A DNA stretch of 56,576 nucleotides, filler included, from Sphacelaria rigidula (Eukaryota): the NCBI GenBank assembly GCA_964200075.2. It is 7 parts of 7 records of this genome, joined end to end, with 100 filler letters (N's around TTAATTAATTAA, not from the genome) between each part and the next. Parts side by side here need not be neighbours in the genome. Positions count along the whole stretch, not along the records: positions 24,292 to 32,288 come from CAXNAA020012705.1; 6 more parts are not named here. The stretch is one strand, 5' to 3'. Below the pieces are notes generated by a model. The model saw only the letters and a list, made by a program, of their open reading frames with translations, was not told the DNA's origin and did no database searches. A program made the position numbers and the translations under genes. Shown piece by piece: positions 4,096-40,250 of this stretch; the first letter of the stretch is position 1, and each line of letters starts with the position of its first letter.

Positions 4096-4098
4096 ATA

Positions 4099-5157: not shown

Positions 5158-5163
5158 CGCCAG

Positions 5164-5790: not shown

Positions 5791-5799
5791 TGTCCGCCC

Positions 5800-11546: not shown

Positions 11547-13775
11547 GTGGCGGGAAGCACGAAGGCGGAATTCTGCTCCAAGCATGCCAGGGCGAGAATG
11601 GTGAACGTAAGAAGCAAGATATGCGGCTACAAGGGCTGCTCCGCGCAGCCGTCGTATGGTGCGGCGGGAAGCACGAAGGCGGAGGTTTGCTCCAAGCATA
11701 CCAGGGCGGGAATGGTGAATGTGGTGAGTAAGATGTGTGGCTACAAGGGCTGCTCTACGCTGCCGTCGTATGGTGTGGCTGGAAGCAGAAAGGCGGAGGT
11801 CTGCTTCGAGCATACCAGGACAGAAATGGTGCGTGTAAGAATCAAGATGTGCGGCTACGAGGGCTGCTCCACGCTGCCGTCGTATGGTGTAGCGGGAAGC
11901 AAGAAGGCGGAGTTTTGCTCCAAGCATGCCGGGGCGGGAATGGTGAACGTGGTAAGTAAACGGTGCGGCTATGAGAGCTGCTCTACCCGTCCGTCGTATG
12001 GTGTGGCGGGAAGTACAAGGGGAGAGTTTTGCTTCAAGCATTCCAGGACGGGAATGGTGCGTGTAAGAATCAAGATATGCGGCTACGAGGGCTGCTCCAC
12101 GCGGCCGTCGTATGGTGTGGCGGGAAGCAAGAAGGCGGAGTTTTGCTCCAAGCATGCGAGGGCGGGAATGGTAAATGTGACGCACAAAATATGCGGTTAT
12201 GAGGGCTGCTCTACGCTGCCGTCGTATGGTGTGGCGGGAAGCAAGAAGGCGGAGGTCTGCTCCAAGCATGCCAGGGCGGGAATGGTGGACGTGGTAAGTA
12301 CGATGTGCGGCTATGAGGGCTGCTCTACGCAGCCGTCGTACGGTGTGGCGGGAAGTACAAGGGGAGAGTTTTGCTCCAAGCATGCCAGGACGGGAATGGT
12401 GAATGTGGTGGGTAAAATGTGCGGCTACGAGGGCTGTTCCACGCAGCCGTCGTATGGTGTGGCAGGAAGCAAGAAGGCGGAGTTTTGCTCCAAGCATGCC
12501 AGGACGGGAATGGTGAATGTGGTGAGTAAGAGGTGCGGCTACGAGGGCTGCTCCACCCAGCCGTCGTTTGGGGTGGCAGGAAGCAAGAAGGCGGAGTTTT
12601 GCTCCAAGCATGCCCGGGCGGGAATGGTGAATTTGAAGCACAAAATATGCGGCTATGAGGGCTGCACTACGCTGTCGTCATATGGTGTGGCGGGAAGCAG
12701 AAAGGGGGAGGTCTGCTTCAAGCATACCAGGACGGGAATGGTGCGTGTAAGAATCAAGATGTGCGGCTACGAGGGCTGCTCCACGCAGCCGTCGTATGGT
12801 GTGGCGGGAAGCAGAAATGCGGAGTTTTGCTCCAAGCATGCCGGGGCGGCAATGGTCAATGTGGTGAGTAAACGGTGCGGCTATGAGGGCTGCTCTACGC
12901 AGCCGTCGTATGGTGTGCCGGGCAGCACAAGGGGAGAGTTTTGCTTCAAGCATGCCAGGACGGGAATGGTGAATGTGGTGGGTAAAATGTGCGGCTATGA
13001 GGGCTGCTCCACGCAGCCGTCGTATGGTGTGGCAGGAAGCAATAAGAGGGAGTTTTGCTCCAAGCATGCCAGGGCGGCAGTGGTCAACGTGGTGAGTAAG
13101 AGGTGCGGCAAGAAGGGGCGTTCCAATCCACGTGTCGACAGGGAGGACACCTTCGTTGAGGACACGCTTTGCCAACAGCATGCTAGTGCACACAGCACAG
13201 CTACGAGTTTCGATACCACGAAGCTCAACACTGGTGAGGCCACCCTCGACCGTAGCGCAACAGAGGGTAATGGAGGAAGCGTTGCTGATGTACGAGGAGT
13301 GAAGCGCAAGCGCGCAGCCCTCTTGGGTCCTGGTGCAAACGACAGCACAGGTGCTCGTCGTAGTTTGTGCGCCGGTTCCAGGCAGGGGAAGATACTATCC
13401 CTCTCGGGACGTCCACCCTTGCTCCCGGGACACCCACCTTCGAGGGCTGATGATGAGGTGTCTTTGCGGGCAGGAGCAAGAGCAGGAATGAAGGTAGAGC
13501 TGGCAGTCCCGTCTCCTACACACGGTGACGATGGGAAAAGGAAGAGTGGCGAGCAGGCTGCCCTGTCGAGCGACTGGAGCAGCGAACGTGGTAGTGGTGG
13601 ATTTATCAGCAGTTGTGGCGGGGGAACGGGGGGGCTCCGTTGTTCGCCGGCTGTGGTACCTGGATGCATGGACACATCTGATGATGTGGCTTTTGAAGGA
13701 GAAGATGAGGATTCGAACGTGAAGTTGGAGCTAGGAGTGCATAGTCCTTCTCCTCGGACGTCCGATACATGGTAG
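11547..13775 (+). CDS. EsV-1-7 cysteine-repeat protein: 13 complete 38-aa CCCH repeats plus a ~200-aa disordered tail; 5' end damaged
   Basis: Unit CGYEGCSTQPSYGVAGSKKAEFCSKHARAGMVNVVSKR matches the EsV-1-7 repeat pattern of brown algae and their phaeoviruses. The ORF-track start is GTG and the first in-frame ATG is at 11598. An in-frame TAA lies just upstream at 11541. Confidence 0.85.
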   Translation: MAGSTKAEFCSKHARARMVNVRSKICGYKGCSAQPSYGAAGSTKAEVCSKHTRAGMVNVVSKMCGYKGCSTLPSYGVAGSRKAEVCFEHTRTEMVRVRIKMCGYEGCSTLPSYGVAGSKKAEFCSKHAGAGMVNVVSKRCGYESCSTRPSYGVAGSTRGEFCFKHSRTGMVRVRIKICGYEGCSTRPSYGVAGSKKAEFCSKHARAGMVNVTHKICGYEGCSTLPSYGVAGSKKAEVCSKHARAGMVDVVSTMCGYEGCSTQPSYGVAGSTRGEFCSKHARTGMVNVVGKMCGYEGCSTQPSYGVAGSKKAEFCSKHARTGMVNVVSKRCGYEGCSTQPSFGVAGSKKAEFCSKHARAGMVNLKHKICGYEGCTTLSSYGVAGSRKGEVCFKHTRTGMVRVRIKMCGYEGCSTQPSYGVAGSRNAEFCSKHAGAAMVNVVSKRCGYEGCSTQPSYGVPGSTRGEFCFKHARTGMVNVVGKMCGYEGCSTQPSYGVAGSNKREFCSKHARAAVVNVVSKRCGKKGRSNPRVDREDTFVEDTLCQQHASAHSTATSFDTTKLNTGEATLDRSATEGNGGSVADVRGVKRKRAALLGPGANDSTGARRSLCAGSRQGKILSLSGRPPLLPGHPPSRADDEVSLRAGARAGMKVELAVPSPTHGDDGKRKSGEQAALSSDWSSERGSGGFISSCGGGTGGLRCSPAVVPGCMDTSDDVAFEGEDEDSNVKLELGVHSPSPRTSDTW

Positions 13776-15968: not shown

Positions 15969-17198
15969 TGTCATGGTACGATACTTAACACCTGGAACAG
16001 TAGTTTCGTGAGATTGAGAGTGGATGGTGCGATTGAGAGTAGGCTTTTCAAGGCTTTCTGCGGCGGGTTGTGCCTGCATTAATGGACACAACGCNNNNNN
16101 NNNNNNNNNNNNNNNNNNNNNNNNNNNNNNNNNNNNNNTTAATTAATTAANNNNNNNNNNNNNNNNNNNNNNNNNNNNNNNNNNNNNNNNNNNNAAAGTC
16201 ATTTGTTTCGGGTCTGACTCTGAATCTGAAACTACGTTCTGAATCTCACGAATATAGTGTTCCCTCTGGATCCCGACGAGAACAATGTGCCACACGCCAG
16301 TTGAGGGGGATGTATGAGAGATTAAAGACTTGTGGAGACCTTTTTGACTTTCGGAGTGGAAAAAGATACGTATGGTGGTGACCTAACTGTTGCTGGTGTG
16401 GCGCAAAGGAGTCCGTCCATGCTGCAATCTGGAGCACACGCTGGTCGCGTGAACACCTAGCTCGGTGCAGTACGAGTAGCTTTCCAGAATTATTCCGATG
16501 TGAGGAGGTCATGCATTACAAACTGGGACGAGAGTGCTCTATGATTAACCACTTGTCATTGCATTTGAGACCCACGCCATCAACCGCCTACAGCAAAGGC
16601 CTTGTAGCTTTCACGCAACGCTGTCGGTTGTACGGCAGGCAAACCCAATCACAGCTAGCTTTCGTTGCTACGGTACATACTCCCGACCGAAGTTCGCAAC
16701 GGGTATGAAGGTTAATCAGTTGATTTTTCTCAACTTCATCCACCCAATTTAAACCACTCTCAAGACCTGAGGGAAGGTGGCCGCTTAGGGTCCGGCTAAA
16801 CATGCGGAGATACCGTCGAACAGCAATACCAAACTTTTCTGGGATTGGCACCAGGCAGTCCGTGGAGAAGGGAACATAAATCGACAGATTACCGTTCGTA
16901 TTAGAAAACAATGCGCATGAAACGCTTTGCAGGTTGGAAGACACGCATTTTCATAGAGAAACAACTCTCGGCACCCCCATTAGTGTCCTATGCGGTCGTA
17001 AACACTCTACTATCCTTCATTAATACCTGGCGGGGGGACAGGGAAGCCGTCCACCCAATCAAGTGGAACAAGGATACTGGATCGGGATCGAAAGCAGCAG
17101 CCATCGACTCGACAACTCTCCTTACCGGCAGCGTTTTCACGAGGTGACGAAATTTCAACAAAAACGCGATCATATCAACAGCATATATATATATATAT

Positions 17199-21424: not shown

Positions 21425-24400
21425 GTAGCAGTCAAACGGGTCGACACGGGTGGGGGGGGTTAACACATGTCTTGTTCGATGAGAGTCGTTCCGGAAATCG
21501 AAAGCGAAGGAAAAAAAAAAAAAACGGGGCGAACAGGAGCAAGTCTCAAAAAAGGATAGTGAAATGCCTGCCGTGACACAATTACAAGAGGATTACGCGG
21601 GCCCCCGCGCCTCAAAAGCGTGGCGTGATCGTGCCCCACGTGGGTCTGTCTGCCTCAGTCCACGGCGTGTGATTGATCCTTGACAGACAAGCGTGCCCGT
21701 GGGTCTGATTTCTTGAGAAGCCATGATCAAAAATCTAAATCCAACGTAGATCTCGATTTTAGAGAAGCGATCGGTATCCAGCGTTCACCCCGGCGAAACG
21801 GAGACGGTCATCTCGTCGGGAACCGCTTCAAAATCAGAACCAGAATCACACTGATTGTTTTTTTTCTTCTTTCTTTCGATTTCGTTCACATTTGAGTCCA
21901 CTATGTCGTTCTGTTTGACTTTTTTTTTGCTTCTCTTCTTTTTCTTCAGCAAGTGAGTGTTTCAGTTCAGTTTTTCTTGAGTACGTCCATCATGAGACCA
22001 TGGCTGGATCCCTGGGGGGTCGGTTAAAGTGCGATAATCAATCAATAAAAGATGTTGATCATGATGATGACGACGAAACAGCCCGCGAGTGGTGGCAACC
22101 ATTCCACGTCTCCTTTCGCATGTTCATTGAATTTGACCGTCCTCTCTCCCAAAAAACAATTCGAGCATCACCAGTTTTGGGGACGGGGTGTGGTATCCAA
22201 TCGTTTTTGTGTCGGAAAAATGTGCGGTGGAATCGAACTGGTCCGTATCTGATACATCCACGTTATTTATTCTCTCCGATGGTTGAGGACATGCATAAAT
22301 GCCGGGGCAGTATCAGATACGAACGAATCCGATTCCACCGCACGTTCTCGACACAAAAACGGGACGATGAGACACGACCCGAGAAAAGGAACAAGAAGGC
22401 GAAAGGGAACGTGAATTGGTTGCCACACCCAGGCTGTCCCGTCTTCCTCACAATCTGATCGTTCTCACTACTTCTGTCATGAGAAAAAGTCGACCTTGCC
22501 TACCGACGGGAAAACAAAAAAAAAGCGAACATGAGAACGAGACAACATGCGAAGACAGAAAGTGCGTCACACGCAAGTACTCGCGCTGCAGCCTTCACGG
22601 CAACCATTCATCACTCCTTTTCACAACATCATCGAAATGTTCGCCCGTTCTCATAACTATTGAAGAAGATAAATAAATTCGATGAGCGTGGTTGTGACGG
22701 CAATCATTTTGGAACAAGTACCCCCCACGAATCAGGAGGGTAAAAAAATATTAAAGCGCCAGTCTCATCCTCATTCTCCCGATGTCATCATATTTCCAGG
22801 TTCCGTCTTACGCCGTGTCTCCGCACACCACCGTTCGATAAAAAAAGGAGGGTGAAAACAAATATTCCGATCCGATAGGCATTGATTTCAACCATCTGTA
22901 AAATCACAAGCTGTCAGATCAGAGTTTTCCTTTTCCAGCGCTCATTCCCGATCGAAAAATAAAGTGGGAAGACACGCCCTTAACGAAACAAAAGAAAATG
23001 AAAGCTCACGGCGAGAACGAGAGATACTGGCTGTTTTTTTTTTTTTTCGTCCCTGTGATTGCTGGAGGGCGAATGCCTCATTTACATCGCCCCCGAAATC
23101 ACCCTCGCAAGAAATAATCATGTCCGAAATTGAAAAAGTGAGAACGGAGGAATAACCCGATGAGAGCGAAAGGGGCGGAAAATGATTGCCACGCGTGGGG
23201 CTGTTCAGCTCATCATGCGATGGCGGCCACCAGAGTTATGAAAGAGGGGCCAGGCGATTTCCGGTTCGAGTGTGGTTGCGTTTCAGATTGCGGTTGCCCC
23301 TTCCATCCTTTGTTCGTTCTCGCGACGGCCACACAGCATAGCATACAGCTGACTGTTGGAAGCGGCGTTTTATTCGAAGATGTTCGCTTTCTTTTCATAA
23401 TTTTGTACTTTTTTTCGGTGCTCGGTTCTTTATAGTTTTTATTCTTCCATCATCCAGCATCATTGTTGCAAGAAGAGTCAACCACAACCTGGACAATAAA
23501 TAAGACTTGTCAAGAAGTGTGCTGTATATACAGTTTCGACTGTCGCGTCTTTTGCAACAGATAACATATCCCATACTGTACGCAGTACATCTTTCGACAG
23601 TGATATTATTTTGTCCAGGGTGTGCAGTCAACCCCGGTGCATATTCCACAAATCCACGGTTGATCATGTACATGATTCGAGTGCGTACACGGAGATTCGG
23701 ATCTTGAGTAAACTGACAGTCTCGAGTGCTCCCAGCGTGCTTTGAGGGAACTTTTTGTTCACATCGGAGCCGCACGCGCTGATTCAAGGTCTGTCAACGC
23801 ACATTTTGCCTAGGGTCCTCTTTGCACGCCCATTGTCCACGGGTTCCGGATTTTATTTGGACCAAAGTATCGAGATATGTCTCTCCGTACATCGCGGATT
23901 TTACTCGTCGTGACGAGTGGATCAACGAGAAAAGCATCCGACCCAGCCGTTGAATAGATGGATGGCCATCTGCGAGCACCTAACCCCCCCTTTGATTAGA
24001 CGATGAAGATTGCGGCCCAACAATTCGTCTCCGTCGATGATATGATGGCTATGAGACAGCTAAACTAACCCCCTTCAGCGCCAGAGGTGTCCACTTGTGC
24101 CATCGGCATGATTGTTCACTCGCTAAAGGGGGGCGGGGGGCGGGGGGGGGGGTGTACTCATGATCATGCATGCCATAGTCATCAGACCATTNNNNNNNNN
24201 NNNNNNNNNNNNNNNNNNNNNNNNNNNNNNNNNNNTTAATTAATTAANNNNNNNNNNNNNNNNNNNNNNNNNNNNNNNNNNNNNNNNNNNNCGCCTCATA
24301 TTGGCGGCATTGGCTAGAACGAACCCAAGCGTGGGAATGCCCAGCTTCTCGTTGTGCTCGGCTTTTCCCATTTTGATTTACGTGAAGATTTTGCCTCCCG

Positions 24401-25396
24401 AAACCATGCACTTTCTTGAGGGGGCTATCGTAGAAAGTGTCCCTGGTGCAAACCAGAAAAGACACTCCATCGCCGCGATGGCCATACTCAATTCCCAAAC
24501 GCAGCAGGATGAGAAGTCAAATAGGCTGACTACTTCTGGCATCATTTTTACGAATACGAAGCAGATGTGACAACCCATCACGACAAACATGCATCGGCGA
24601 CAGCCAAGCAATGCTTAATGCTCTCAACGCGATGAACACGTCCAACGGCACACAGTAGAGGAACAGCTTTCCTACCTACATACAATGTTGCCCCGTTCGG
24701 CGAGATGTCCGAATCCGAAGCAACATGCAACTCGTGTCAACCAAGTCATTTACTCGGTAGACCACGTACTGCACTTTTCAGCCTACTCTCGACAGCGCCG
24801 ATCGTCTTCTTGTCCAAACACGCACAACGACACCACGCATGTACAGCTGCGACAAACTCAGCCGGTACGGCAATCCGTGACCTGTTCAATGTACGAATGG
24901 AGTCGTATGCATTCACATCTTCGAGAAGGCAGATCGCGTCCCGCGCAACTACCGCGCAAGCTCGCTCCAGGTGTCTACCTCAGCATACTCTTCAGGTGCC
25001 TCCTTAGCATGATTCTCGAGTATAATAGGTATTTGGAAGGCCGTGGCGAAGAGAGCAGGTTGTGTCGACTAACACCTGCACGCGCTTGATGGACGAAAGA
25101 CCTTTGGGAAATAAACAATATCTGCACAAGATGTGAGAACGCGCCAAGTTGTGGCTCCCATACTTGATTGCCAAATCTGCGTTGTATGCTTAAATTTGCA
25201 TCCATTAGGAGTCGACAGACGGGCCCTGGCCATTCTTTGTTCGACACCAGTTGCATCTCCACACATGATGTTGACGCCCCCAACAAAGCGATCAACCAAA
25301 GAGCAGATGAAAGTTGGCACAGCCCAATATCCTACACAGTCTTGAATGGATACCCGCAAGGCAACAAGAGTCCTTTGGCAACCACCACCACAGCGC

Positions 25397-27526
25397 TCAC
25401 ACACTGCCATCACGAGTAGCAGCGAATACTCGTGTTGCAGTAAAGCCAGGAAAATGGTGCGATGAGATGCTCATCTCTGACTTCACGTTCGTCACCCCCT
25501 CGCACACCAGAACGCCCGAGGTAGTCATGCTGCGGGCAAATTGCTCCGTGAATATTTCACCAGTCGCACGAGTGAGCTCAGCTCCCTCTGTGGTGCTTCT
25601 CTTCGAAGCCTCACCATGGTTGGACTGCCGCATTCTGCCGATGCGTGACCGTCTTGGATATTCTTCACTTTCATTCGACGCTTGCACAGCTATCTCTAGC
25701 TTCACCTTTTTCGCGCAAATCGCCGATTGTTCAAAACGGCAAGCTGCTGATCGCACATTTCTCCTGGAGCGGACGCTCGCCATCTCGTCCAGGGCGTGCT
25801 GTGAGCAGAAATCCACCTTCTTGCTTCCCGCCGACCCAAACGACGCTGTCTTGAAGCAGCCCCCTCTGGAGCACGTCTTGTTCTTGACACCCACCATTCC
25901 GTCTTCGGCATGCTGTAAGCAGAACTCCGCCTTCTTGCTTCCCGCCAACCCGAACGATGGTATCGTGAAGCAGCCCTCTCTGCAGCACGACTTGTCCTTG
26001 ACATCCACGATCCCGTCTTCGGCATGCTGTGAGCAGAACTCCGCCTTCTTGCTTCCCGCCAATCCAAACGATGGTATCTTGACGCAGCCCTCTCTGCAGC
26101 ACGTCTTGCTGACGATATTTACCATCCCGTCCTGGGCGTGCTGTGCGCAGAATTCCGTCTTCTTGCTTCCCGTCAACCCGAACGACGGTATCATGAAGCA
26201 ACCCTCCCTGCAGCACGTCTTGTCCCTAACATCAACCATCCCGTTCTCGGCGTGCTGTGAGCAGAACTCCGCCTTCTTGCTTCCCGCCGACCCAAACGAT
26301 GGTATCTTGAAGCAGCCCTCTCTGCAGCACGACTTGTCCTTGACACTAACCCTCTCGTCCTCGGCGTGCTGTAAGCAGAACTCCGCCTTTTTGCTTCTCG
26401 TCAACGCAAACGACGCTATCTTGAAGCAGTCATCTCTGCAGCACACCTTGTCCCTAACATTAATCATTCCGTCCTCGGCGTGCTGTAAGCAGAACTCCGC
26501 CTTCTTGCTTCTCGTCAACGCAAACGACGCTATCTTGAAGCAGCCGTCTCTGCAGCACGTCTTGTCCCTAACATTAAGCATCCCGTCCTCGGCGTGCTGT
26601 AAGCAGAACTCCGCCTTCTTGCTTCCCGCGGACCCAAACGACGCTATCTTGAAGCAGCCCTCTCCGCAGCACGTCTTGTTCTTGACATCCACCATTCCGT
26701 CCTCGGCATGCTGTGAGCAGAACTCCGCCTTCTTGCTTCCCGCCGACCCAAACGACGCTATCTTGAAGCAGCCCTCTCCGCAGCACGTCTTGTTCTTGAC
26801 ATTCACCATTCCGTCCTCGGCGTGCTGTGAGCAGAACTCCGCCTTCTTGCTTCCCGCCAGCCCAAACGACGCTGTCTTGAAGCAGCCCCTTCTGGAGCAC
26901 GTCTTGTTCTTGACATTCACCATCCCTTCCTCGGCGTGCTGTGAGCAGAACTCCGCCTTCTTGCTTCCCGCCAACCCAAACGACGGTATCTTGAAGCAGT
27001 CGTCTCTGCAGCACGTCTTGCTGACAACAATGACCATCCCGTTCTTGGCATGCTGTGAGCAGAACTCTGCCTTCTTGCTTCCCGCCAGCCCAAACGTCGC
27101 CCGCCTGCAGCAACGCTCCCTGCAGCACGTCTTCTCCCGGATATAAACCATGTCCTCATGCGCGTGCTGTGAGCAGAACTCCGCCTTCTTGCTGCCCGCC
27201 AACCCCAAATAGGCTCGCCTGGAGCAGCCCTCTCCGCAGCACGTCTTCTGCCTCACATGAATCATCCCGTCCTCTGTGTGCTGTGAGCAGAACTCCGCCG
27301 TCTTGCCTCCCGCCAACCCAAACGACGGTATTTTGAAGCAGCCCTCTCTATAGAACGCCCTGTTGTTGGCATTAACCATCCCGTCCTCGGCGTGCTGTGA
27401 GCAAAACTCTGCCTTCCCGCTTCCCGCCAACCTTGAAGAAGCTCGCCTGGAGCAGTCCTCCCTGTAGCATGCCTTGCGTTGAACATCCACCATCCTGTCC
27501 TCGGCGTACTGTGAGCAGAACTCCAC
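25397..27526 (-). CDS. EsV-1-7 cysteine-repeat protein: 15 38-aa CCCH repeats plus a ~120-aa tail
   Basis: Unit CCREGCFKIPSFGLAGSKKAEFCSQHAEDGMVNVKNKT in an uninterrupted 709-codon ORF. The ORF-track start is GTG and the first in-frame ATG is at 27493, so an upstream exon is possible. Confidence 0.88.
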   Translation of the reverse strand: MEFCSQYAEDRMVDVQRKACYREDCSRRASSRLAGSGKAEFCSQHAEDGMVNANNRAFYREGCFKIPSFGLAGGKTAEFCSQHTEDGMIHVRQKTCCGEGCSRRAYLGLAGSKKAEFCSQHAHEDMVYIREKTCCRERCCRRATFGLAGSKKAEFCSQHAKNGMVIVVSKTCCRDDCFKIPSFGLAGSKKAEFCSQHAEEGMVNVKNKTCSRRGCFKTASFGLAGSKKAEFCSQHAEDGMVNVKNKTCCGEGCFKIASFGSAGSKKAEFCSQHAEDGMVDVKNKTCCGEGCFKIASFGSAGSKKAEFCLQHAEDGMLNVRDKTCCRDGCFKIASFALTRSKKAEFCLQHAEDGMINVRDKVCCRDDCFKIASFALTRSKKAEFCLQHAEDERVSVKDKSCCREGCFKIPSFGSAGSKKAEFCSQHAENGMVDVRDKTCCREGCFMIPSFGLTGSKKTEFCAQHAQDGMVNIVSKTCCREGCVKIPSFGLAGSKKAEFCSQHAEDGIVDVKDKSCCREGCFTIPSFGLAGSKKAEFCLQHAEDGMVGVKNKTCSRGGCFKTASFGSAGSKKVDFCSQHALDEMASVRSRRNVRSAACRFEQSAICAKKVKLEIAVQASNESEEYPRRSRIGRMRQSNHGEASKRSTTEGAELTRATGEIFTEQFARSMTTSGVLVCEGVTNVKSEMSISSHHFPGFTATRVFAATRDGSV

Positions 27527-27699
27527 GTTTCTGCAGGCATAACGTTTTCACCCTCGTACAGTATCCGACGACGGCCGTTCCAAATAACACTTACTGCTCA
27601 GATTCACCTACTTTGCCATTCATTCCACTGCTCCACCTGACGACAGGGTAAACACGAAAGTAACATGCACATGTGATCAGTGTCTAGTTTCACAGATAT

Positions 27700-28450
27700 C
27701 GCCCTGCATATCAGCGCGACAGGTCAGCGGTATCAGCCGGCTGCCAACTTTGTCTACCTTCGTGCTGCCAGCGTGGATGCGGAGGTTTCTATCGAAATCA
27801 ACCGCCGCATCAGCGCAGCGTGGGCACGTCTCCGACAGTATCGTTCCCCACTCTCCGATCATAACAACGCCCAGCTATCTTTGGAAGTTCGGCTGCTCAA
27901 AGCGATAGGTGGCGGAAGGTCTTTCGAACGAATGCGCCACATAGGCCGGGCGTTCCGAGGACTCCGATAGTCTGCGCACTGCCCACCACCAGCTTTTGCT
28001 ACACGTGGTTGGGTTTTGCAGGAAAATCGAACGGGCTGCAAGACTCTTCCGTACAGAGCCGTGCTCAAGATGATCATCTGCAAACGTACCGCAGCATCAA
28101 CTGTGGTTCGCGGGGGCCCTTGTCCTGCAGAACGAAACGCGGCTTCCCAAACGCATCACCATGGACTGCCAGCCGCAAGAGGGCCTAAAGAGGCTGGCTG
28201 CCTCCCCAAACACTATGGGGACAACCTCCACAAGATACCTACGTGCACTAGAAGCTTTACCACGCATAGGAGCGCGACGGAAATGGTTCGTCTACGGTGC
28301 AAAGGTCAACACGACTAGGTCACTGCGGCGAAGGCAAATGGCATGTTAGAGTAGAGAAAAGGGGCGGAAAAGATCGAGGACACGTGGCGACGCGAAGACA
28401 ACGAGAATTGGACCGCCACAAACGAGGGCCTGATGCGTCGGGGGCCGCCG
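27700..28450 (+). mobile_element. Degenerate RTE-like LINE fragment (RT C-terminal part)
   Basis: NFVYLRAASVDAEVSIEINRRISAAWARL...LSLEVRLLKA resembles the non-LTR FxYLG...EIxxRIxxA motif. The continuation is frameshifted. Confidence 0.7.
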
Positions 28451-31400
28451 ATTGGACAACTACCCTCGCTTGCACAGTAAGAATCACAGCTGCGACAAAT
28501 CCAAGATGGAAACGACCGAGAGAAATACCCGCTTCGTGCCTAGGTAGGAATGAATGCGAGAAATTGGGCAAGCATGTAAACCGATTAGGCTTAACCCTCT
28601 TCGGACTGAAGCTCACAAACAATGGGTTCACCGTGTGTTAGTAAAATGATAATGAACAAGTCTAGGAGCGACCTCTTTAATCAGGGCGAGGCGAAATTTA
28701 TCGACCACATCAGAACGATCGGTGGGGGGGGGCTGTCGCCGGGAGTGATGTCACTGCAAAGTTGGTGTACCCTGTCTCTGGCCCACAGAAAAGCCTTCGA
28801 AGCAAAAGAAACCCCAAGTTGTCGGAGTTCGAATTCTCGATTTTTCCATCATTTATTTGCATTTTATGTGGACCCGACCTCCCATCCCCCGATTTGTTTT
28901 CGGGTCACCATCCTATAGTAAACCCTAGTTGATAACACAAACACGTAGTAGTTAGTGTACCTTCTATATATGTGGTCGTGTTCACAAGGCGACTGAATGT
29001 AGCAACGCTGTGGGACGAGAGACGGAGCAAGAGGAATAAGTTTTGCGTATCCTTCTTTCAAAGCGGTACAAGGGGTGGTGAGGTTGTATGTAACTGACAG
29101 TAACGAACAAGCTGTGCATAGGCAGCTGATCTCCGTCGCGGAGAACTGCCCAGAACATGTGAGGGAGTATGCAGCGGCAGCTGCTGCTGCATTCGGAAAG
29201 GCGTGTTGCACTGTACTATATCTGCGGCGCAACGCCCATGCCGTTCGAAGAGAATTTGCCGCTTGCAACAAGGAGGGAAATCGCGGCCCACCTCGGCCAC
29301 AACGGGCTGTGTGGCGAGGTGATACAATGACACAACATAAATCTTTGCGATATCATGCACGTGGAAAACGCAATGATACGTGGCAATCATGAAACTGTCG
29401 AACGAAACACGCATGTTTGAGGCGCCTTCTGGCACAGAATTACCTTGTGCTCTTCAACCCGCTCCCGTAACGTGAAAGGCTTCGAACTTACACACGCAGG
29501 TTGTCATGTGAAGAAGTCGGGGATGTGAAGGCGATTCCACGTCCTCACTCAACCAAGTAACCGTACGAGCACTGTGTCGGCCTCAATATTATTGTCACAC
29601 GTGGAGAGTCAACTCCTGATAGATCTATGACGTACCCGCGGATGTACAAGGTACTTGTGATGTCGGCAGAAATAACTGTAAACTTTACCTACACCCTGTA
29701 TATTTGGAGCACATACATTGGCGCGATCTGCGTACATGGCCACGCTGCATTCAAGTAATCAATGATAGCTCTATTGCACCTAGCTGGGTCATCGGTGTTC
29801 ACTCAAATCCAGGAGTAATACTTAACCCGCCACACTTTGCTGGGGAACACGTGGGCCAAGCCCGTTGGCTTCATGACAGGTATCGATTGAGCCAGGTACG
29901 GGGCGGGGGAAGCATGTGAGTGAGTCTTAGTTTCACAAAATATGAAGCAAGACATGCAAGGTTGGTTACGACGCCATAGCTCGACACCCACGACAATTTA
30001 GAGTGGATGGGTTCGATCGATGGCCTTGACTGCAGCATCATTTCTCGAAGGCCACTGATGAATAATTTTCAGCACCGGAAGGCGATATATGTTCGTCCCA
30101 CCTGCAGAAGGTACAGACTGCCTCCTCTACGTAGACAAACGAGCGTGATTCGAGATTTTGGCTCGAAGACACGGAGTAAGAATCTCAACTCTTGGGAAGA
30201 GAGGAGCATCAATCATGTAGGCCATCACAGCAGTTTTTTCCCCTGTACTTTCTCGGAGTTGGGTCTATTGGACTTGAATTCCGAGAAAAAACAAACGCCC
30301 TTCTTACCTCAAAAACAAGATAGAGGGAGGAGTTTTTCGATCGATTACAATGCATTTTTCTCCATGTATTTCAGGTTTACTATTTTGACTTTCGAGCGGA
30401 AAATATCAAGATAGTGTGTAGATTCTCGAAGGTATGAATCCCATTCATGAGTGCAAATACTTCCCCCACTGTATGCTTCGGCGGTGGCTTTCGGCGGACG
30501 ACCTGTTGGCAGGTTGAAACAAGCATATTTATCCTTCTCTTGATGTCAGCTACGCGTCCACCAGTTTTCGATGCAATCGGCGAAAATTGGAGTATCACCG
30601 TTTCTGTACCAAACCGCCACCAATGGGTACCGCCATTAGAAAGTATTTGGTATCCCAGGATGTCGTGAAATGATGAGCCTCGATGACGGATCAGAGCGCG
30701 CGGTGCACTCAAGGTTGGCGGTGGGCATGCAGGAAGCTCACTTGTTGTGTTGTTCTCTGCTGCTGAATGTCGTATTCGCACCGGAGACCTTTATTGGGTC
30801 AAGCAGTGGAACCACCCTGTGGGTGTGGGCTATCGCAAGATCCTGTCATCGTGTGAAAAAGTATCAACATGGCCATTCTTCAAAGTAGCATAGCCCCGCC
30901 GTCGCGATGGTCAACGCTACCGGGACCGGTTCAATGGCAAGCCCTACTGCCGGGCATCATTTGCTCCTGGGACACTCTTGGACTCTTCATGCTGGTGGCG
31001 CTAAATATCGCCAACATCATCGAGCCGAGCCGCCGCTGATCGGTCGATCCCAAATTCGAATTATGGAGCTTGTCCAGTTCGTCGGACGAAGAAAACAAAC
31101 GATGTCAGCATGACAAGCAGGAACCATCGCACACGCAGTGTACACACACGGACAGTCACGGCAATAAGCAGGGTACCTTCTACAAAAGTTGTACCGGACC
31201 GGAAAGCAAGCCAGTGTGGGAGTTGGGTCCATTCGGCACTTTCTGTCTGGCTATGCTGCTGCTGCAGCACGAGTACCCCCGGCTGCTTCTGCGAACCAGG
31301 TAGCCATTGACCAGGAAACACAGGTGTCACCCTCACTCTGCGTACGTCTCTGGACGGCGCAGATCGTCTGGAGTGGAGTTCATGCCCGCAGTCAGTGTGG

Positions 31401-34400
31401 GCACAACGCGGTAGTGCCGTACTGTGTGTGCACCACATCATACGGACTTCAGACAGGTACCGCGAAAAATACTGTAAAAAACTGCCGACAGGTTATGACT
31501 GCTGGTAAGTACATACGCGGGGCCAATGTAATGAAAGTACGCGAAAACCATCAATGTTCAGGGATGTTCTCGCCAAAAAGCGCCAGTGCTTCCGTCGGCC
31601 ACCCAATTTTTTTTTCCAACACTTCCAAACGTCATCGTATTTTCGTAGGTGATGATGGATATCGCGGTTTTTCGGGCCCTACGCTGCGCACGTGACTCCT
31701 ATTTCTTCACAACAAACACAGAACGCAACAAGTAGGAACGATTGCAGAAGCGGTTAAAAGGTACTGACATACATGGAGTGCATGCGTAATCGATACTTTG
31801 TGGCACATTCCGGCGGCTTGGGACGAGGGAAGGCAGACGTTATCCCTTCTCCGGTGTTAAGCACACCTCATCACGGACCACCTCCGTGGTATTTCGAGAG
31901 GCTGCTGTTGTCATCCTACACTGATCCCCACCTTACTAAGACATCGAATATAATCTTGGAAGCATCAGCGTTCTATCGCAAAAGGTTTGGCACAATAAAC
32001 GTATCTCGTCAATTAAGCGTCTTGGTTAAAGTTCCATAACGTGTCTAAAACATGGCTCAAAGTACTCAATGACCCAAAAATTGCCTCGGCACAGCTACAT
32101 TCGGAATATTGCTGCATTGACATCAAAAGCAGGAATCGCCTGGGCTATGGAGTTGCCTGAAATAGGGAAGATATAGACATGAAGCACACAGCATGGACGA
32201 TCCACTGCAAAAGGTTTGGCTGGAATACGTCCATGAAGACCGACGCCCAGATGGGTAGGGTGATTCGTGTACAGAGTCGAGCTAGGGGNNNNNNNNNNNN
32301 NNNNNNNNNNNNNNNNNNNNNNNNNNNNNNNNTTAATTAATTAANNNNNNNNNNNNNNNNNNNNNNNNNNNNNNNNNNNNNNNNNNNNCAAACCGCTCAG
32401 TTCTATTTTGAGAACACGTTGAGGCTGAGAAAAAAAAAATACCTACCGAATGCCGTGTTTCCAGAGGCAGTACCAGCGTAGCTGGCGGTACTTATTTCAG
32501 TACCGCGTAGTTCGCTGAAATAGCCGAGTCGGGGGTCGATGACGTATCCTCGTGCAGGTAAACAGTCAATAAGTGTACAAGCGCAGCCGTAATTCAAGTA
32601 TGTAGTGCAGTACAACCGCAGCGTACAAAGCCCCAGGCAGCAAAATGCTGTGTGGCACAGTACAGTACATATGATCTTCGCGTGGGGTACCGGAGGGTCG
32701 ACAGTGCAGTACGATGTCAATTTGTTCGTATCACGTGAAGAAAACCCGATACAGCGCTATACCCGCTTCGTGTTCATATCTACAATGCAATAGAGGTGAC
32801 TTCGTTCAGATAGTGCAGCAGAACCCAACGTATGCTACAGCACGATACCTCACCGTCTGCAAGATATGACCCGCTGAGGTCATTTTTATTTCAAACGTTG
32901 CTGTACTGTTGTCAGTACTTCAATTCGAAACAATATGTCAACGGGAAAGGTACGTGGCCTTCTGGACGATCAAGTATGTACTGTAGTGTGTGTTGGTGGG
33001 GCGGCAATCGAACTGTAGTATACCCTGGTGCCGTGTGAAAGTGAAAAGAGTACAGAGTCGAGAGCTTGTGCACAAGTAACATGAGCCTTGCGGGTCACCG
33101 TGGTCAATCATGCTCGTGTACATGCAACATCTTCAGTCCCGGCCCATCATGTCGCATCGATGTAATTCGGTGCGCATGGTTGATCAACGTTCCGTGTTTG
33201 GAAGAAAACTCGTCTGCGCAGCGGGCGGCGGTTGAACTAGGTCGCGTAGTCGTTACCTGCAAGCATGATTCGGTGTGTGTTGGGACACATGTCGGTCGAT
33301 TCGGTTGAGACCAGATCGACGGACTGTGAGTAGGGGCGGTCGCGGGGTGTATGGGGGGTGGTTGATTGTGTAGCAAAAGAAGACTTGCGTGTGCGCTTGT
33401 ACGTGGAGCGCCTTGTGGTTCGGTCGCCATTGCCCGAGACCAACGTGGGTACTGTATGACACATCGAAGACCTGCAGCTAACTCGAGTCGAGATGTCTGT
33501 CAAAGTCCGAGTAAAAAAGAGAACAGCTATCTAAGAAGCTGTCTAATTACCTTGGGGTATTACACCGCTAAATCGTGTACACAAATATCAAGTGGAAACA
33601 GGGGCTGAAAATACAAGGTTTTTGCGAGAAAACTGTGAGCTGGTGTTTGGCTGCGTGTATACAGCAACCGATCGAGAAAGAAAAACCGTACAGCTTGAAT
33701 GAAACAAGCTACCTCTGAAGCCCCACAATGTGGCAGTATAGGCAAATACCGCAGTAGTAAAACCGTGTACGCCGAGCGCAAGCAAGCCACACCCTTGTGA
33801 GGTGTCGGCATGCGATCCTGGATTGACTTGCTACGCTCAAACTGTTGTTTCAGTCTCTCAATCCAATAGCCTAGCTGTCAAAGGGGAAAACCATTCAGCC
33901 CCAAAGCCAGAAAACAAGTAATAATTGTGGATGAGGGTAGAAGTACAGCACAGCTTAGACTCACGTCAATACTGTGGCTCGCGACCGTGGAGGCGGAGAG
34001 ACCGAGGATGGTAGGTGATGGGAAAAAGCTTTTCTTTATCCAACAGGTGCTTGTAGGCTGCGGTCGGTGTGTTCGAGTGGACAGGTGGGTAGAGTAGCTG
34101 TTCTATCGATACCGTCCGTCTGCCCCGCTTACAATCTCGGCGTAATGCAAAATCCCCGTGACGTGCTGTGCCTTTAGCCGATCAAAGCTGTAGCAGCAGC
34201 AGGTACACGCGGCTAATCGGGTACAATCCTGTATCTACCTTCAAGCAGCTGTGTCACCGATAAAAGGATCGAAATCCTGCCTCATACAAACACACATTCG
34301 ACTAGAATCTTTCCATACCCGCCGGTCGTTTCTAGGGACCATCTGCATACCCACAAAGAACTAGTTTAAATTCAGGCACTCAGTCATTTACCAACACACA

Positions 34401-36621: not shown

Positions 36622-39600
36622 TCAAAACGGTGCGTTGACATTATGTGTGCGATCGATGTTATGTTGACTTTCGCGGCGGAGGCCTTTGGACTTGAGTCGC
36701 TGTAGACACCAAGATCCTTTCGGTGCGGACGGACTTGTGGTGTAAAGCTCTGGGCGGAGTTTGAGGTGTACGGGTCCGGGGTCATCGATGCAGCGCACGG
36801 TGCATACCCGTCTCTGGGCAATGAAGGTCAAGGGCGTGAATGGGCGTGGGTGATTTCAAAGGGCAGCGTTTTACAATGCCCCAGATCCGTTTTGGATCGA
36901 GAAAAGCGGTCTTGGCACTCCAATAAAACATCGCTCAATTCTTTGATTACAGCGGGTTCCGAACCGGGTTCATGTAGGTCAAAGTTGATGTCACGTAAAT
37001 GGCATGGAAGTTGATCCCAAATGTGCAAGAAACTTGTCCGAGATTCTGGCGATAGGCGTTGCAGCACTTCAGCAGGAGGTTCGGACGTTGACGGTGCAGG
37101 GTCCACGGTGTGCATACATGATGGAGACGAAAAGGTTACGTCGAAGTAAGGCTCATCGACGCAGTTGACAGAACCGTCCGTCGGAGGCGCCGAGTTGGGC
37201 GTCGAAGGTTCAGTGGTACATGTTCCAAGTGGAATGTGCATGAGGGAAGCAGCAGCAATATCAAAGACATCTCCGGGTCCCAAATTAGCATGACCCGTGA
37301 GGGGCAAAAGCTGTTTTCCGGCGGAGACAAAGTGTTCTGTGCCGGCAGGCGCACCAACTCGAGGAAACATTTCAGCGAGGTAATGTCCCGTAAGAGCAGG
37401 CATGCCATTTCGGCGAACGAGGGCAACTTCTAGCAGTTGGGGATCATCGGAGAGGGTAACACCAGCAGTACCATCGTATCGGAGGTGATAAGCAGCTCCG
37501 GTAGCTTGTTCATGTTTTTGGTAGGCCAAGGCGCCGTGAAGAGTACCGAAATGTTCAATGTTGAGTTCTCCACGAGGCGCAGACTGTGGCGATAATGGTG
37601 GTAGCGTGCGGTAGGTGCGTTGATCAAACCGCATGTAACTATCTCGGCCCATGAGTAAGGCGTGAGCCATGGTGCTGTCGAGGACAACACATGCCCAGAC
37701 TGCACGGCTGGCGGGAACGAGTTGTGTTGTGAAAGAATTGCAAACTGAGACGAACTGATATTCGTGTGGTCAAAGGTGCGGTGGAATCACCAAAGCCGCC
37801 CCATACTCGAGGTTTGGTGGTGATTTCGCAAGCTGCTGGAGCAGCGCCAACGTTTTTCATATGTTCCCACATTGATTCATGAATAAATGTTTGTGGGCTG
37901 CCGCTATCTAACAAAGAGGCACAATTGTCAGTCGTGGTTGCGTATGGTTCACAATGAAGCGCTACGCGAGTAGTAAAAGTGGCAAGATCAACAGACACTT
38001 TACCGCCGACAAGATCTGGACCATGCTCAGCCAAGGTGAATTGATCGGAATCAGTAGTGCTGACGGCGAAAATGAAGGGCGGGTGATCCGCCGGGGATTC
38101 AACTTGCTCACCAGAAAGTTTGATGGATGATGTGTGATCCCCAGAGTGAGCATAGCTCGTCTGGTCATTAGCAATTTCATATATGACTGTGTTGGGAAGG
38201 CAGGGATCAACGTCTAAAGTAGATCCATGTTGTTCAGTGTAGTCCGCAGAGGAGGTGAAAATATCCGAAATATCTGATTTGGATTCTTCTCGGACACTTG
38301 ATAAATTCATCGAGCTCAAAGTCGTCGCATTTTGGAGAGAGTGAGGTCGAGATTTTCCACTCGAGGGAGGTGTACGTGTTGATGCGTACGCTTCAGTAGG
38401 GGCATGTTCACGGGGCTTCCTCTCTCGCCGTGACAAAGGGCGGGAAACTTCCAAAGTATTTGGGGAAAGCGCAACTGCGTCCAGTTGAGTGGATTGGGTC
38501 AGCATCGGGGCATGCTCGGGCGAAACTTGTGGACTGTCCGCTGGCAAGCTTGGCTGAGGAGTCATCGCCGAAGGTATAGTATGATGGTTTATGTGAGAAC
38601 CAGTCACGGGTAGCTTCGCATGCTGCAATGAACTCGAAGAATGAACTCGTTCGACCTGGGTGGGTGTTACATGGTCCGAAGCGGTCAAATTCGGACCAGC
38701 GACACTTGAACTAGTCGAGTGAACACTTTCTACGATAGCCCCCTCCCAAAACTAGCTAAAAGTGTCACGAAACAAATGGCCATACAGCGCCCAATGTTCG
38801 GGTTCAGGCTGAAGCGCCTCATATTGGCGACATTGGCTAGAAAGAATCCAAGCGTGGGAATTGCCAGCTTCTCGTTGTGCTCGGCTTTTCCCATTTCGAT
38901 TTACGTGAAGATTGTGCCCTCTAAAACCATGCACGTTTGTGGGGGGGCTATCGTAGAAATTATCAGTGAATTACACTACTGTCTGTGCGTGCGGTCGCTG
39001 AGGAAGCTTTTGCCTCAGAGACGGGCGGATGGTGTTGCCACACCTCAGACTTTCGCTTGGTTCCGGAGGACCAAGTCCAGACCCTAGGGTAGAGCTAAGT
39101 TGTGAGTCAACGCAACTGTTACGCTGTGTGCGAAGAGGTGAAGACGGGGGTCGATATGAGCGGCTGTCATCAGTACTCGTGTATAGTGCCGGGGAGGTTG
39201 AGCGAGAAAGTTTTGTCGCTCGTTCCGCGGTTGGTGCTGAAATAGTCTTCGCGTGTGCGGTCGGCGGCGCCAAAGACGTAAAAACGCCGGCGTCGGCATG
39301 TTGTCATGGATCGGTATGATCAGTCATAAAGGAACCAGGGCTTCTGGCGTTGGGGTTCGAGTGATTGTGATTCGGCCCCGTGCGCTGGTATCTATCGGCG
39401 TAATTCCGTTGACGGTGAGATGAACTCTCTCTTCGCCGGGAGCCAGAGTTGTCGTAGTTGTTGGAGCGACTGTCGCGATTTGAGCGAGTGTTGTCGCGGT
39501 CGTTGAAAGGGGGCCGAGAATGAGGGTTGGATGTGCGATATTCACGCATGCGTTTCTGCCATCGGCGCCGTGCTGGCTCATTGTCTTGCAGCTCAGAGTT

Positions 39601-40250
39601 CATGTGGTCAAAAGAGTTGATACGAGGGCGAGTATAATTGTGCATACTGTGCCCTTGGGTGTCACAATTGATGCAATTATTTGCGTGGCGGCTGAAGGTC
39701 TCGTGTCTGGCAGCAGACAAGAGGAGGGGATTCCACAGATGTGGGTCATCTGTAGTAAACGCAGAGGTAGATACAGTGTACACATCATCCCAAGTCTCGA
39801 TGGAGTACGGCCATCCGTCAAAATTGGCGCTGAACGGATCTCTTTTGTTTGCAGCGCTCATGACGGAGCCGGCCACGGAGGCAGGCATTCACGAGGAACG
39901 AAGCGAAGTGTAAGGCCGGCTACTGGACCCTGAAGGTGTCGAAGAAGGCGCAGAAGCAGACTGTGAACGAACTGAAGCATACTTGTCGCCGCGAATGGCT
40001 GGCGTCAAAATATTTTCTTGATGGACAAACGCACTCAATACCGCATCCACAGAGGGATAAGGCACTTCGCGGTGGGCTAAAGCACCTGAAAACAGTGATG
40101 GCATTAGAGCTAGGGACTGCTCGGACATACTATTCCTTGCATATGATTGACACATTGCGTCCGACGGGCCAGTCTGGCGACCTACTCCCTTAGTACTGGA
40201 AACGAGAAGCTTGAATTCTCGGAGGTAGTCCGCGCGAAGGGGACATCGGT
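36622..40250 (-). mobile_element. Degenerate gypsy-like retroelement: gag, protease and RT start, then a large deletion
   Basis: Decayed Zn knuckle CINCDTQGHSMHNY (ORF 39304-39888), protease site LLDSGSPQTFI (ORF 37639-38688) and pre-RT motif DRFSRSKTDLGHCKTLPFEI (ORF 36828-37670). No RT core or integrase follows. LTRs were not identified, so the boundaries are approximate. Confidence 0.75.
38722..38964. mobile_element. GACACTTTCTACGATAGCCCCC-TIR MITE with 4-bp TSD AGTG
   Basis: Complete 243-bp copy. Excising it restores the reading DSSVIHSTSSSVAGPNLTASDH into the protease ORF. Confidence 0.85.

Follow-up and report, generated by a model that had tools for sequence, protein, structure and literature searches.

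The question raised by this locus is whether a long minus-strand array of Cys-rich repeats, built on the same scaffold as a second array but with a different set of residues, encodes an intact protein, and what its own residues might imply for function. The window, meaning the whole stretch of DNA that was analysed, comprises 56,576 nt from the Sphacelaria rigidula assembly GCA_964200075.2 and consists of 7 parts of 7 records joined by fillers of 100 N. The array under study belongs to a gene (gene B) that lies inside the part spanning positions 24,292-32,288 (CAXNAA020012705.1), and the coordinates of its counterpart (gene A) fall outside that part. Along the joined window the two genes are convergent and 11.6 kb apart, a distance that implies no genomic neighbourhood, as they stand on different parts. 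All features are collected in Table 1.

Table 1. Features of genes B and A, in positions of the whole window.
Feature	Positions	Strand	Remarks
Gene B open frame, stop to stop	25397-27547	-	716 codons plus stop codon 25397-25399; PF19114 match
Gene B array, 15 tandem EsV-1-7 units of 114 nt / 38 aa	25760-27469	-	B01 = 27356-27469; B15 = 25760-25873
Vestigial partial 16th unit, model positions 50-111	27473-27534	-	nhmmer E=1.2e-10
Candidate start 1, first in-frame ATG (conserved Met31 of the partial unit)	27491-27493	-	698-aa protein
Candidate intron, 64 nt (GTAAGT...CTGCAG)	27531-27594	-	inferred
Candidate first coding exon, 29 nt (MNGKVGESE...)	27595-27623	-	inferred, spliced model
Gene B C-terminal tail, 120 aa	25400-25759	-	two psi-K-x-E motifs
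First psi-K-x-E motif, VKLE	25694-25705	-	gene B tail
Second psi-K-x-E motif, VKSE	25475-25486	-	73 residues beyond VKLE
Gene A array, 14 EsV-1-7 units	11508-13103	+	PF19114 E=1.3e-208, 674.9 bits, 14 stretches
Gene A frame, first in-frame ATG (Met31 of unit A01) to stop	11598-13775	+	725 aa

From the perspective of family identity, the repeats are not the unnamed scaffold as which the earlier note treated them, but a known motif. The product of gene B matches the Pfam family PF19114 (EsV-1-7 cysteine-rich motif) in 15 stretches, with 697.6 bits (E=1e-215) against a gathering score of 25, and contains no other Pfam domain. The ligand pattern of its units, C-X4-C-X16-C-X2-H, is reportedly the EsV-1-7 formula given by Macaisne et al. 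in 2017. A search among proteins of 389-1241 aa in a 5.8-billion-cluster collection retrieved 280 homologues at E<=0.001. Within the best 120 of them, PF19114 is universal (120/120), the same ligand pattern occurs in 114, and the 20 named proteins come from Ectocarpus, Sphacelaria, Pylaiella, Laminaria and Scytosiphon; the commonest spacing between units in homologues is 38 (404 unit pairs; next commonest, 17). Other names attached to homologues, such as Phe_ZIP, SBP, zf-MIZ and IL8, were rejected because these matches overlap the repeats, stay below threshold and occupy no stretch apart from them. The WRKY19-type zinc finger PF24906 (gathering score 27 bits) gave no match to gene B at E<=0.01 and appears only in homologue P0002, again below threshold (26.5 bits) and with no stretch of its own. 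One further homologue, P0015, carries an ELO domain and is possibly a fused gene model. Within the EsV-1-7 family gene B counts as ordinary, if long, and is marked by unusual residues peculiar to it; its membership together with an intact coding array can be regarded as very probable.

According to published accounts, the EsV-1-7 family has undergone strong expansion in brown algae, with up to 335 genes per genome and a tendency towards tandem clusters, and its motif is possibly a new class of zinc finger, for which coordination of zinc by the four ligands has been proposed. The pair formed by gene B and its paralogue gene A in the window may be likened to such clusters, with the limit that gene A lies on another of the joined parts. 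The same sources describe IMM (IMMEDIATE UPRIGHT, from Ectocarpus) as controlling early sporophyte patterning, and the orthologue group of IMM is defined by a unique amino-terminal domain followed by five EsV-1-7 repeats (Denoeud et al.). Gene B lacks such a domain, as at most 8-10 residues precede its array under both start models considered below, and is set apart from IMM by this description, although distant upstream exons are possible. The list of 2018 EsV-1-7 proteins that Supplementary Table S17 of the Phaeoexplorer preprint is described as holding could include gene B. With the rest of the family (PF19114 / IPR043822, including IMM and EsV-1 gene 7), gene B shares the 38-aa unit, the ligand spacing and the linker-free tandem arrangement, but it has 15 units, against 11 at most among the best 120 homologues when the strict motif is counted.

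The array is highly regular. Its units stand head to tail without linkers, exactly 38 residues apart in 15/15 cases and in register from 27469 down to 25760, in agreement with the earlier note, and a single gene B array, far above chance, is reported by Tandem Repeats Finder (25780-27524; period 114 nt, 15.3 copies, 83% matches, score 2137). C6, C23 and H26 are kept in every unit and C1 in 14 of 15, all four ligands being present in 14; the one C1-to-F replacement that had been noticed falls in unit B02 (codon 27355-27353). The count of 15 stands for full units, but a sixteenth, partial one had been overlooked, in which the ligand His has become Tyr (codon 27508-27506). An identity matrix of the units shows a homogeneous core and diverged edges: units B05-B11, B13 and B14 are 82-93% identical to each other at the nucleotide level, against 69-84% between the edge units and the rest. 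Unequal crossing-over of one unit at a time would probably have enlarged the array inside the locus, leaving the oldest units at the edges. Joints in sequencing contigs that skip 575, 689 and 1145 nt, equivalent to 5, 6 and 10 units after counting the 5 letters between their sides, were considered as repeat-number alleles and rejected; the sides measure only 25-28 letters, and the joints were treated as repeat-collapse artefacts or paralogues.

Among the rival explanations, the first to be weighed is that gene B is a copy in decay, namely a young EsV-1-7 pseudogene with a 5' end cut mid-unit by a rearrangement or a mobile element and a frame that is still open because the loss is recent. This is unlikely, although the 5' end offers several arguments for it. 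Repeat similarity breaks off mid-unit at 27534, with nothing further detected upstream of the partial unit by nhmmer; a stop codon (27548-27550) lies directly upstream of the frame; and the closest ATG on that side (27540) belongs to another frame, one of 92 codons. Met31 of the degenerate half unit is the only in-frame ATG ahead of the array. Both losses of a ligand are located in the two 5'-most units. Gene A, too, carries a nonsense codon in its first unit (in-frame TAA at 11541-11543) and a degenerate unit upstream of its array (11402-11497), and the closest protein to gene B in the collection searched (proteins of 389-1241 aa) has only 56% local identity. On its upstream side gene B adjoins a plus-strand ORF (27680-27970), which may resemble the C-terminal region of reverse transcriptases from non-LTR retrotransposons; it matches nothing in Pfam, and insertion of a mobile element at the 5' end is therefore not established.

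Against decay stands a frame that runs uninterrupted through 716 codons and 15 units, with both motifs of its tail kept at near-family spacing. Two candidate starts may be considered. The first, at Met31 of the partial unit, gives an 8-aa head (MVDVQRKA); heads of this length occur in 11 of 120 homologue models, 9 of which open with MV[ND][VI], a support that is weak because these are automatic gene models. Since many homologue models start at Met31 of a partial unit, opening with half a unit may be the normal form in the family. The second depends on removal of the candidate GT-AG intron, which would bring the ATG at 27623 into frame with the array (720 aa) and eliminate the out-of-frame ATG at 27540. 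The proposed splice is seen in no contig of the sequencing runs covering the locus, and no comparable splice-and-ATG arrangement was found for gene A, as judged informally by reading the sequence. The gene B stretch was found in no sequencing run on record as RNA. Four runs are RNA by guess only. Among the sequence data, all of them contigs, those of X5, X7, X8 and X1 cover parts of 24304-27597; X5, X7 and X8 give almost no cover over 27754-28538, where X1 continues, and this drop is not taken as a transcript end because all three come from one study.

The substitution pattern also bears on both sides. Differences between units of gene B are nearly equal across the three codon positions (0.18, 0.19 and 0.21), and overall constraint is therefore modest; at family-variable sites dN/dS reaches 1.03 (0.38 in gene A). 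Both values favour decay, but dN/dS falls to 0.26 at the 16 family-conserved positions (0.55 over all positions), which shows that the ligand and scaffold codons of gene B are under purifying selection. Diversifying selection is not clearly indicated, as dN/dS is never clearly above 1.

With gene B taken as a coding member of the family, its contrast with gene A can be addressed. The earlier proposal of one scaffold with two residue sets is borne out by the consensus of each gene: positions 25-30 read QHAEDG in gene B and KHARAG in gene A, and the frequent extra Cys (position 2, giving a CC start) is present in 11/15 gene B units. Mean nucleotide identity between units is 0.81 within gene B, 0.82 within gene A and 0.65 between the two, with dS rising from 0.35 within gene B to 0.85 between the genes. 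In the repeat-level tree of the two genes that the earlier note called for, their units separate with 100/100 support and do not intermix. In an enlarged tree of 93 units, including 64 from 11 homologues, the units of gene B stay in one group (SH-aLRT 93), whereas those of gene A interleave with units of several S. rigidula proteins, with up to 34/38 residues identical to them, and need 5 label changes. Expansion or concerted evolution locus by locus, as had been suggested, is supported for gene B, where either process would be compatible with the trees, and not for gene A. The ties of gene A to other genes of the species extend beyond the repeats: it is 62% identical to the S. rigidula protein P0103 ('unnamed protein product', NCBI) over all 415 residues, tail included, and an 8-aa MVNV head and a psi-K-x-E pair 77-79 residues apart are common to gene A and to P0103, P0033, P0046 and P0087. 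Gene B has the head pattern and the motif pair too. These S. rigidula EsV-1-7 proteins have 3-6 units, as against 14 in gene A and 15 in gene B.

The residue set of gene B is largely its own, with C2, F7, Q25 and E28 rare among other members of the family. Cys at position 2 is found in only 4/534 homologue units, and Phe at position 7 in 16/534, as opposed to 11/15 in gene B for the latter. The gene B-specific residues C2, R3, F7, L14, Q25 and E28 lower the mean net charge per unit, which is +1.6 in gene B and +3.4 in gene A; the gene B value is the 16th lowest of 98 proteins, that is, low but not extreme. Given this lower charge, gene B may differ from gene A in its partner.

A second rival explanation regards positions 9 and 33-36 as the specificity residues of a modular code, in which each unit reads one target element in the manner of TALE or C2H2 repeats. 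The residue strings that had been listed for positions 7-10 and 33-36 are all present in gene B units, but the claim that 9 and 33-36 vary in both genes survives in part. Over 400 distinct homologue units, positions 9, 35 and 36 are variable (entropy 3.40, 3.20 and 2.97), while 33 and 34 are conserved (N/D in 90% and V/I in 92%, respectively); position 34 is V in 13/14 units of gene A and 12/15 of gene B. Positions 9, 35, 36 and 38 rank within the top eight variable positions in both genes (4 shared, about 1.9 expected), 9 and 35 doing so family-wide as well, but the correlation of per-position variability between the genes is not significant (rho=0.28, p=0.11), which leaves the sharing of variable positions weak. 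At positions 9 and 33-36, dN/dS in gene B is 1.13, compared with 0.42 outside the named variable slots, a value biased upward because the sites were picked after the variation had been seen; in gene A it is 0.47. In the chain, slots 33-38 and positions 2-10 of the following unit are contiguous and flank the C-X4-C knuckle, a point in favour of the code. The analogy with tandem C2H2 zinc-finger arrays and TALE repeats lies in the many short tandem modules, the few variable positions and the duplication of units within the gene. Gene B differs in its CCCH ligands (4/16/2 spacing), its beta-rich predicted fold and a variation that goes beyond a few contact residues, with no positive selection detected. 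In TALE repeats nearly all variation resides in two residues, whereas the units here are only 66-73% identical at the protein level and vary over many positions. To our knowledge, no EsV-1-7 member has a known biochemical activity, ligand or structure. A specificity role for positions 9 and 33-36 is weakly supported, and a one-unit, one-element code appears improbable.

The structural side of the proposal rests on a predicted model of units B05-B07. With 144 aligned rows, AlphaFold returned small beta-rich modules (pLDDT 86, predicted without metal), compared with a pLDDT of 35 from 24 three-unit rows taken from the window only. Each unit would with good probability bind one Zn2+ through C1, C6, C23 and H26 and fold as a small beta-rich module; somewhat less than evenly probable is that the protein would act as a regulator reading its partner, a protein or a nucleic acid, one module after another, via surface residues around the Cys knuckle. 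No PDB sequence was matched by a profile search at E<=10, Foldseek found no PDB match at E<=0.001 (best E=2.9), and VIA-align over 48,161 chains gave one weak match as its best (Z 2.2, the zinc-binding N-terminus of coronavirus nsp13); therefore no fold was assigned, and no solved structure hints at a ligand. Among viral models of BFVD, in contrast, 26 were matched at E<=0.001, including EsV-1-7 itself (Q8QNQ2, E=3.2e-12, 50% identity) and EsV-1-115. EsV-1-7-like models from giant viruses (Faunusvirus, cedratvirus, Marseillevirus, Pithovirus and Klosneuvirus) have the same predicted three-unit architecture and superpose with TM 0.83-0.84 and rmsd 1.7-2.2 A over 107-114 columns, at 31-38% sequence identity in the three best. 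In UniProt, several of them bear the name endonuclease, primase or resolvase; going by these names only, the repeats may be attached there to enzymatic domains, of which gene B has none.

These matches, the naming of the family after a phaeovirus gene and the frequency of integrated viral elements in brown-alga genomes (as stated in the literature) might suggest that gene B is part of an integrated giant-virus element and not of the host gene set. This is very improbable: the best sequence matches are host-type brown-alga proteins, the other long frames of the seven joined parts match only zf-CCHC, Integrase_H2C2 and a sub-threshold rve (retrotransposon) or nothing, with no viral core gene among them, and G+C at gene B (0.50-0.56) makes no step within the 0.44-0.57 of the joined window. 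Finally, a non-coding 114-bp satellite with an accidental frame might be suspected, since a period divisible by three leaves both strands open and the plus strand indeed has a 610-codon frame (25314-27146). It is effectively refuted, as that frame matches no Pfam family (best E=0.055, below all cut-offs) and it is the minus frame that carries PF19114, the retained ligands and the constrained scaffold.

Beyond the array, proteins of 389-1241 aa yielded no homologue at E<=0.01 for the tail of gene B as a whole (residues 590-709), but its two psi-K-x-E motifs recur in the family. The tail of gene A has two, 77 residues apart. Among named brown-alga homologues, 17 have a tail of at least 40 aa, and the motif occurs in 12 of these (22 motifs, against 2.0 expected from shuffles). 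The spacing is 77-79 residues in eight tails, those of gene A and seven homologues. The first motif lies 122-198 residues after the array in six S. rigidula EsV-1-7 proteins, as opposed to 18 in gene B. The pair could, tentatively, serve as a site of SUMO-type modification or docking; a literature search, with the founding paper outside its reach, retrieved no paper treating EsV-1-7 together with SUMO.

These elements may be combined into a single reading, improbable as a whole, in which gene B is a neofunctionalised array with a modular recognition surface and a switchable tail. The extra Cys beside C1, Phe7 and the acidic Q-H-A-E-D patch, which halves the positive charge per unit, would direct the protein to a partner unlike that of basic, A-type arrays. 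The surface would be the variable stretch between position 33 of a unit and position 10 of the one that follows, the Cys knuckle included. As for the tails, the psi-K-x-E pair conserved in brown-alga members would be SUMO-type switches.

In published accounts, EsV-1-7 is among the most strongly amplified gene families of brown algae, and one of its members, IMM, controls early body patterning. The gene B locus adds nothing categorically new to this picture, but provides a clean natural contrast between two long arrays on the same scaffold: gene A is basic, with a unit type common to a subfamily of other genes, and gene B is near-neutral, Cys-enriched and gene-specific. The pair would be convenient starting material for work on zinc stoichiometry and binding, and the psi-K-x-E pair of the tails is a small lead, open to test. 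If true, the combined reading would give the large EsV-1-7 family its first testable regulatory handle.

Two arrays with a period of 114 nt were found in the window by Tandem Repeats Finder, and the second of them is enclosed by the minus-strand open frame of gene B. Cutting this second array in register yields 15 units of exactly 38 residues each, which confirms what the earlier note had observed there. Among the ligand positions of the unit (C1, C6, C23 and H26), C1 is kept in 14 of the 15 units and replaced by phenylalanine in B02, and the other three are invariant. The extra cysteine is indeed frequent (position 2, in 11/15 units compared with 4/534 homologue units), the consensus of positions 25-30 is QHAEDG, as against KHARAG in gene A, the first array of the window, and all the residue strings listed for the variable slots were found. 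A profile built from the units recovered a sixteenth, partial unit at the 5′ edge (E=1.2e-10), in which the ligand His is changed to Tyr, and no repeat-like sequence upstream of it; the window holds no motif copies beyond those of genes A and B. A 610-codon open frame runs antisense to the gene B array on the plus strand. It matched no Pfam family, and its best explanation is the repeat itself, which lacks stop codons and has a period that is a multiple of three.

Gene B adds a new member, long and of unusual composition, to the well-known EsV-1-7 family, whose cysteine-rich motif (PF19114) is also matched by gene A in 14 stretches (E=1.3e-208). Searched against 5.8 billion protein clusters, gene B has 280 relatives at E≤0.001, and the motif is present in all of the best 120 of these 280. 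Twenty of the 120 are named, from Ectocarpus, Sphacelaria rigidula, Pylaiella littoralis, Laminaria digitata and Scytosiphon promiscuus, the remainder coming from assemblies and metagenomes. The top local identity to gene B among the matches listed is 56%; gene A is 62% identical to one whole S. rigidula protein, tail included, which makes a brown alga close to that species the probable origin of the window. Gene B has 15 units, whereas the best 120 of 280 homologues (389-1241 aa) have at most 11 by the strict motif. Phe7 occurs in 11/15 gene B units versus 16/534 homologue units, and the units of gene B carry a mean net charge of +1.6, compared with +3.4 in gene A and a family median of +2.5, the 16th lowest among 98 proteins (array pI 8.7 in B, 9.4 in A).

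In a tree of the 29 units, genes A and B form separate groups (support 100/100), and nucleotide identities average 0.82 among A units, 0.81 among B units and 0.65 across the two genes. When 64 units from 11 homologues are added, the 15 units of gene B remain one group (SH-aLRT 93), whereas those of gene A are mixed with units of S. rigidula proteins, which costs five label changes; some gene A units share 34 of 38 residues with these. Across all labels this enlarged tree needs 16 changes (minimum 12, shuffled mean 68.8), and 8 of the 13 proteins have their units grouped together; moreover, the nearest unit lies within the same protein for 327 of 563 units, so that own-gene likeness is common throughout the family. 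It is strict in B, and in A it applies to a subfamily and not to the locus.

Of the proposed specificity positions, 9, 35 and 36 vary across 400 distinct units taken in register (entropies of 3.40, 3.20 and 2.97, respectively), but 33 and 34 are conserved: 90% of the units have N or D at position 33, and 92% have V or I at position 34. The slots described as separate are in fact one stretch, since unit positions 33-38 continue into positions 1-10 of the next unit, and the variable residues thus flank the C-X4-C knuckle. Four positions (9, 35, 36 and 38) are common to the eight most variable of both genes, with about 1.9 expected, and per-position variability in A and B correlates only weakly and not significantly (rho=0.28, p=0.11). 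Other positions are fixed within each gene and differ between them (A/B: G/C2, Y/R3, S/F7, Y/F12, V/L14, K/Q25, R/E28), and it is these that the earlier note took for two residue "alphabets"; positions 2, 7, 14, 25 and 28 are fixed within genes A and B, yet among the most variable family-wide. Overall, the interpretation of the arrays in that note is partly supported.

Nei-Gojobori counts over all unit pairs within a gene give dN/dS values for A and B, respectively, of 0.34 and 0.55 at all positions, 0.21 and 0.26 at 16 family-conserved positions, and 0.38 and 1.03 at 13 family-variable positions picked from homologues, independently of the window. This indicates constraint on the scaffold and at most neutral evolution at the variable sites, with no clear sign of diversifying selection in these pairs. 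At synonymous sites, units of one gene diverge by 0.35-0.43 and units of A from those of B by 0.85; the arrays have not been recently homogenised. In gene B, core units (B05-B11, B13, B14) are 82-93% identical and edge units (B01-B04, B12, B15) show 69-84% identity to the rest. In gene A, blocks of two units recur within 11736-13103 (plus strand), A03-A04 as A11-A12 (nucleotide identity 90% and 92%) and A08-A09 as A13-A14 (96% and 91%), which points to multi-unit duplications. Both patterns are those expected from unequal crossing-over, and the history of the arrays may have been either independent expansion or slow concerted evolution.

The first in-frame ATG of gene B is Met31 of the half unit (27493), none lying earlier in frame, and a protein starting there would have 698 aa and begin with the head MVDVQRKA. 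Heads of 8 aa occur in 11 of 120 listed homologue models, all automatic, and 9 of these 11 begin MV[ND][VI], which hints at this start. As an alternative, excising a candidate intron would bring ATG 27623 into frame with the array, for a protein of 720 aa, and remove the out-of-frame ATG 27540; this splice is absent from the contigs covering the gene B region. Just upstream of the gene B 5′ end lies a 96-codon frame with no Pfam match, which may resemble the C-terminal portion of reverse transcriptases from non-LTR retrotransposons; an insertion truncating gene B at this frame has no support from Pfam. In gene A, decay affects the 5′ edge of the array: its first unit has TAA in frame (11541-11543) in place of the TAT of other units, and its earliest usable ATG is Met31 of A01 (11598). 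Together with the degenerate unit upstream, this TAA means that both arrays are frayed at the 5′ edge. That the gene B copy is itself already decaying is rather unlikely.

Coordinates of features in the window
Feature	Position	Strand	Remarks
Array 1 (gene A)	11506-13109		14.1 copies
Array 2 (gene B)	25780-27524		15.3 copies, 83% matches, score 2137
Gene B open frame	27547 to stop 25399-25397	minus	encloses array 2
Gene B units	B01 27356-27469 to B15 25760-25873	minus	in register
Gene B half unit	27473-27534	minus	
Candidate 64-nt intron	27594-27531	minus	GTAAGT...CTGCAG, gene B 5′ end
VKLE	25694-25705	minus	psi-K-x-E, gene B tail
VKSE	25475-25486	minus	psi-K-x-E, gene B tail, 73 residues from VKLE
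Two psi-K-x-E motifs	within 13104-13772	plus	gene A tail, 77 apart
Degenerate gene A unit	11402-11497	plus	upstream of A01
Antisense frame	25314-27146	plus	610 codons
Upstream frame	27680-27970	plus	96 codons
Three consecutive long frames	3241-6174	minus	zf-CCHC (gag), Integrase_H2C2, sub-threshold rve
Ser/Pro/Thr-rich frames	36828-39888	minus	313, 370, 194 codons; no Pfam match
Low-complexity frame	43450-44850	minus	466 codons; no Pfam match
41-nt-unit arrays	565-1016, 2206-2676, 8828-9209		unit of 82 nt in the last
Paired 44-base N runs	7998-8097, 16095-16194, 24192-24291, 32289-32388, 40385-40484, 48481-48580		
Single 10-base N run	7066-7075		

Elsewhere in the window, the three consecutive frames are an LTR-retrotransposon remnant interrupted by frame changes, and the Ser/Pro/Thr-rich frames may be another mobile-element remnant. 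The low-complexity frame, with acidic, basic and Gly runs and overlapped by long frames on the opposite strand, may be a host-gene exon. A 41-nt unit with TACCCGACAG...TCTGTAA forms short arrays in at least three places, which look like a dispersed minisatellite or small mobile-element family. The paired N runs are spaced at intervals of about 8.1 kb, one pair about 1.1 kb downstream of the gene B stop codon, a regularity that suggests masking or scaffolding, not biology.

The 120-aa tail of gene B as a whole has no detected relative among proteins of 389-1241 aa (E≤0.01). The tails of genes A and B each carry two psi-K-x-E motifs, the SUMO consensus. The motif is present in 12 of the 17 named brown-alga homologues whose tails reach 40 aa or more (22 motifs versus 2.0 expected from shuffles), usually as a conserved pair 77-79 residues apart, and the pair is found in the homologous proteins P0013, P0017, P0030, P0033, P0046, P0087 and P0103; in all 112 tails, 67 motifs were observed and 30.6 expected. 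A literature search combining EsV-1-7 and SUMO found no paper.

Units B05-B07 were modelled with a pLDDT of 35 from 24 three-unit rows of the window alone, and of 86 (pTM 0.55) with 120 homologues added; the latter model has short strands at unit positions 12-14 and 31-33. No solved structure matches, either by profile search of the units (0 hits) or by comparison of the model (best Foldseek E-value 2.9, best VIA-align Z 2.2). At E≤0.001, 26 predicted giant-virus proteins do (TM up to 0.84), including EsV-1-7 itself (E=3.2e-12, 50% identity), EsV-1-115 and Faunusvirus, cedratvirus, Marseillevirus, Pithovirus and Klosneuvirus proteins. Several bear enzyme names (endonuclease, primase), a lead towards nucleic-acid work.

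As far as the published account of the family goes, it is not present in animals or land plants, has just one member in oomycetes and eustigmatophytes and none in most other stramenopiles, and has grown in brown algae to 95-335 genes that tend to sit in tandem clusters; its member IMMEDIATE UPRIGHT governs patterning of the early sporophyte. Gene B is most likely a string of putative Zn-binding modules in a regulatory protein.
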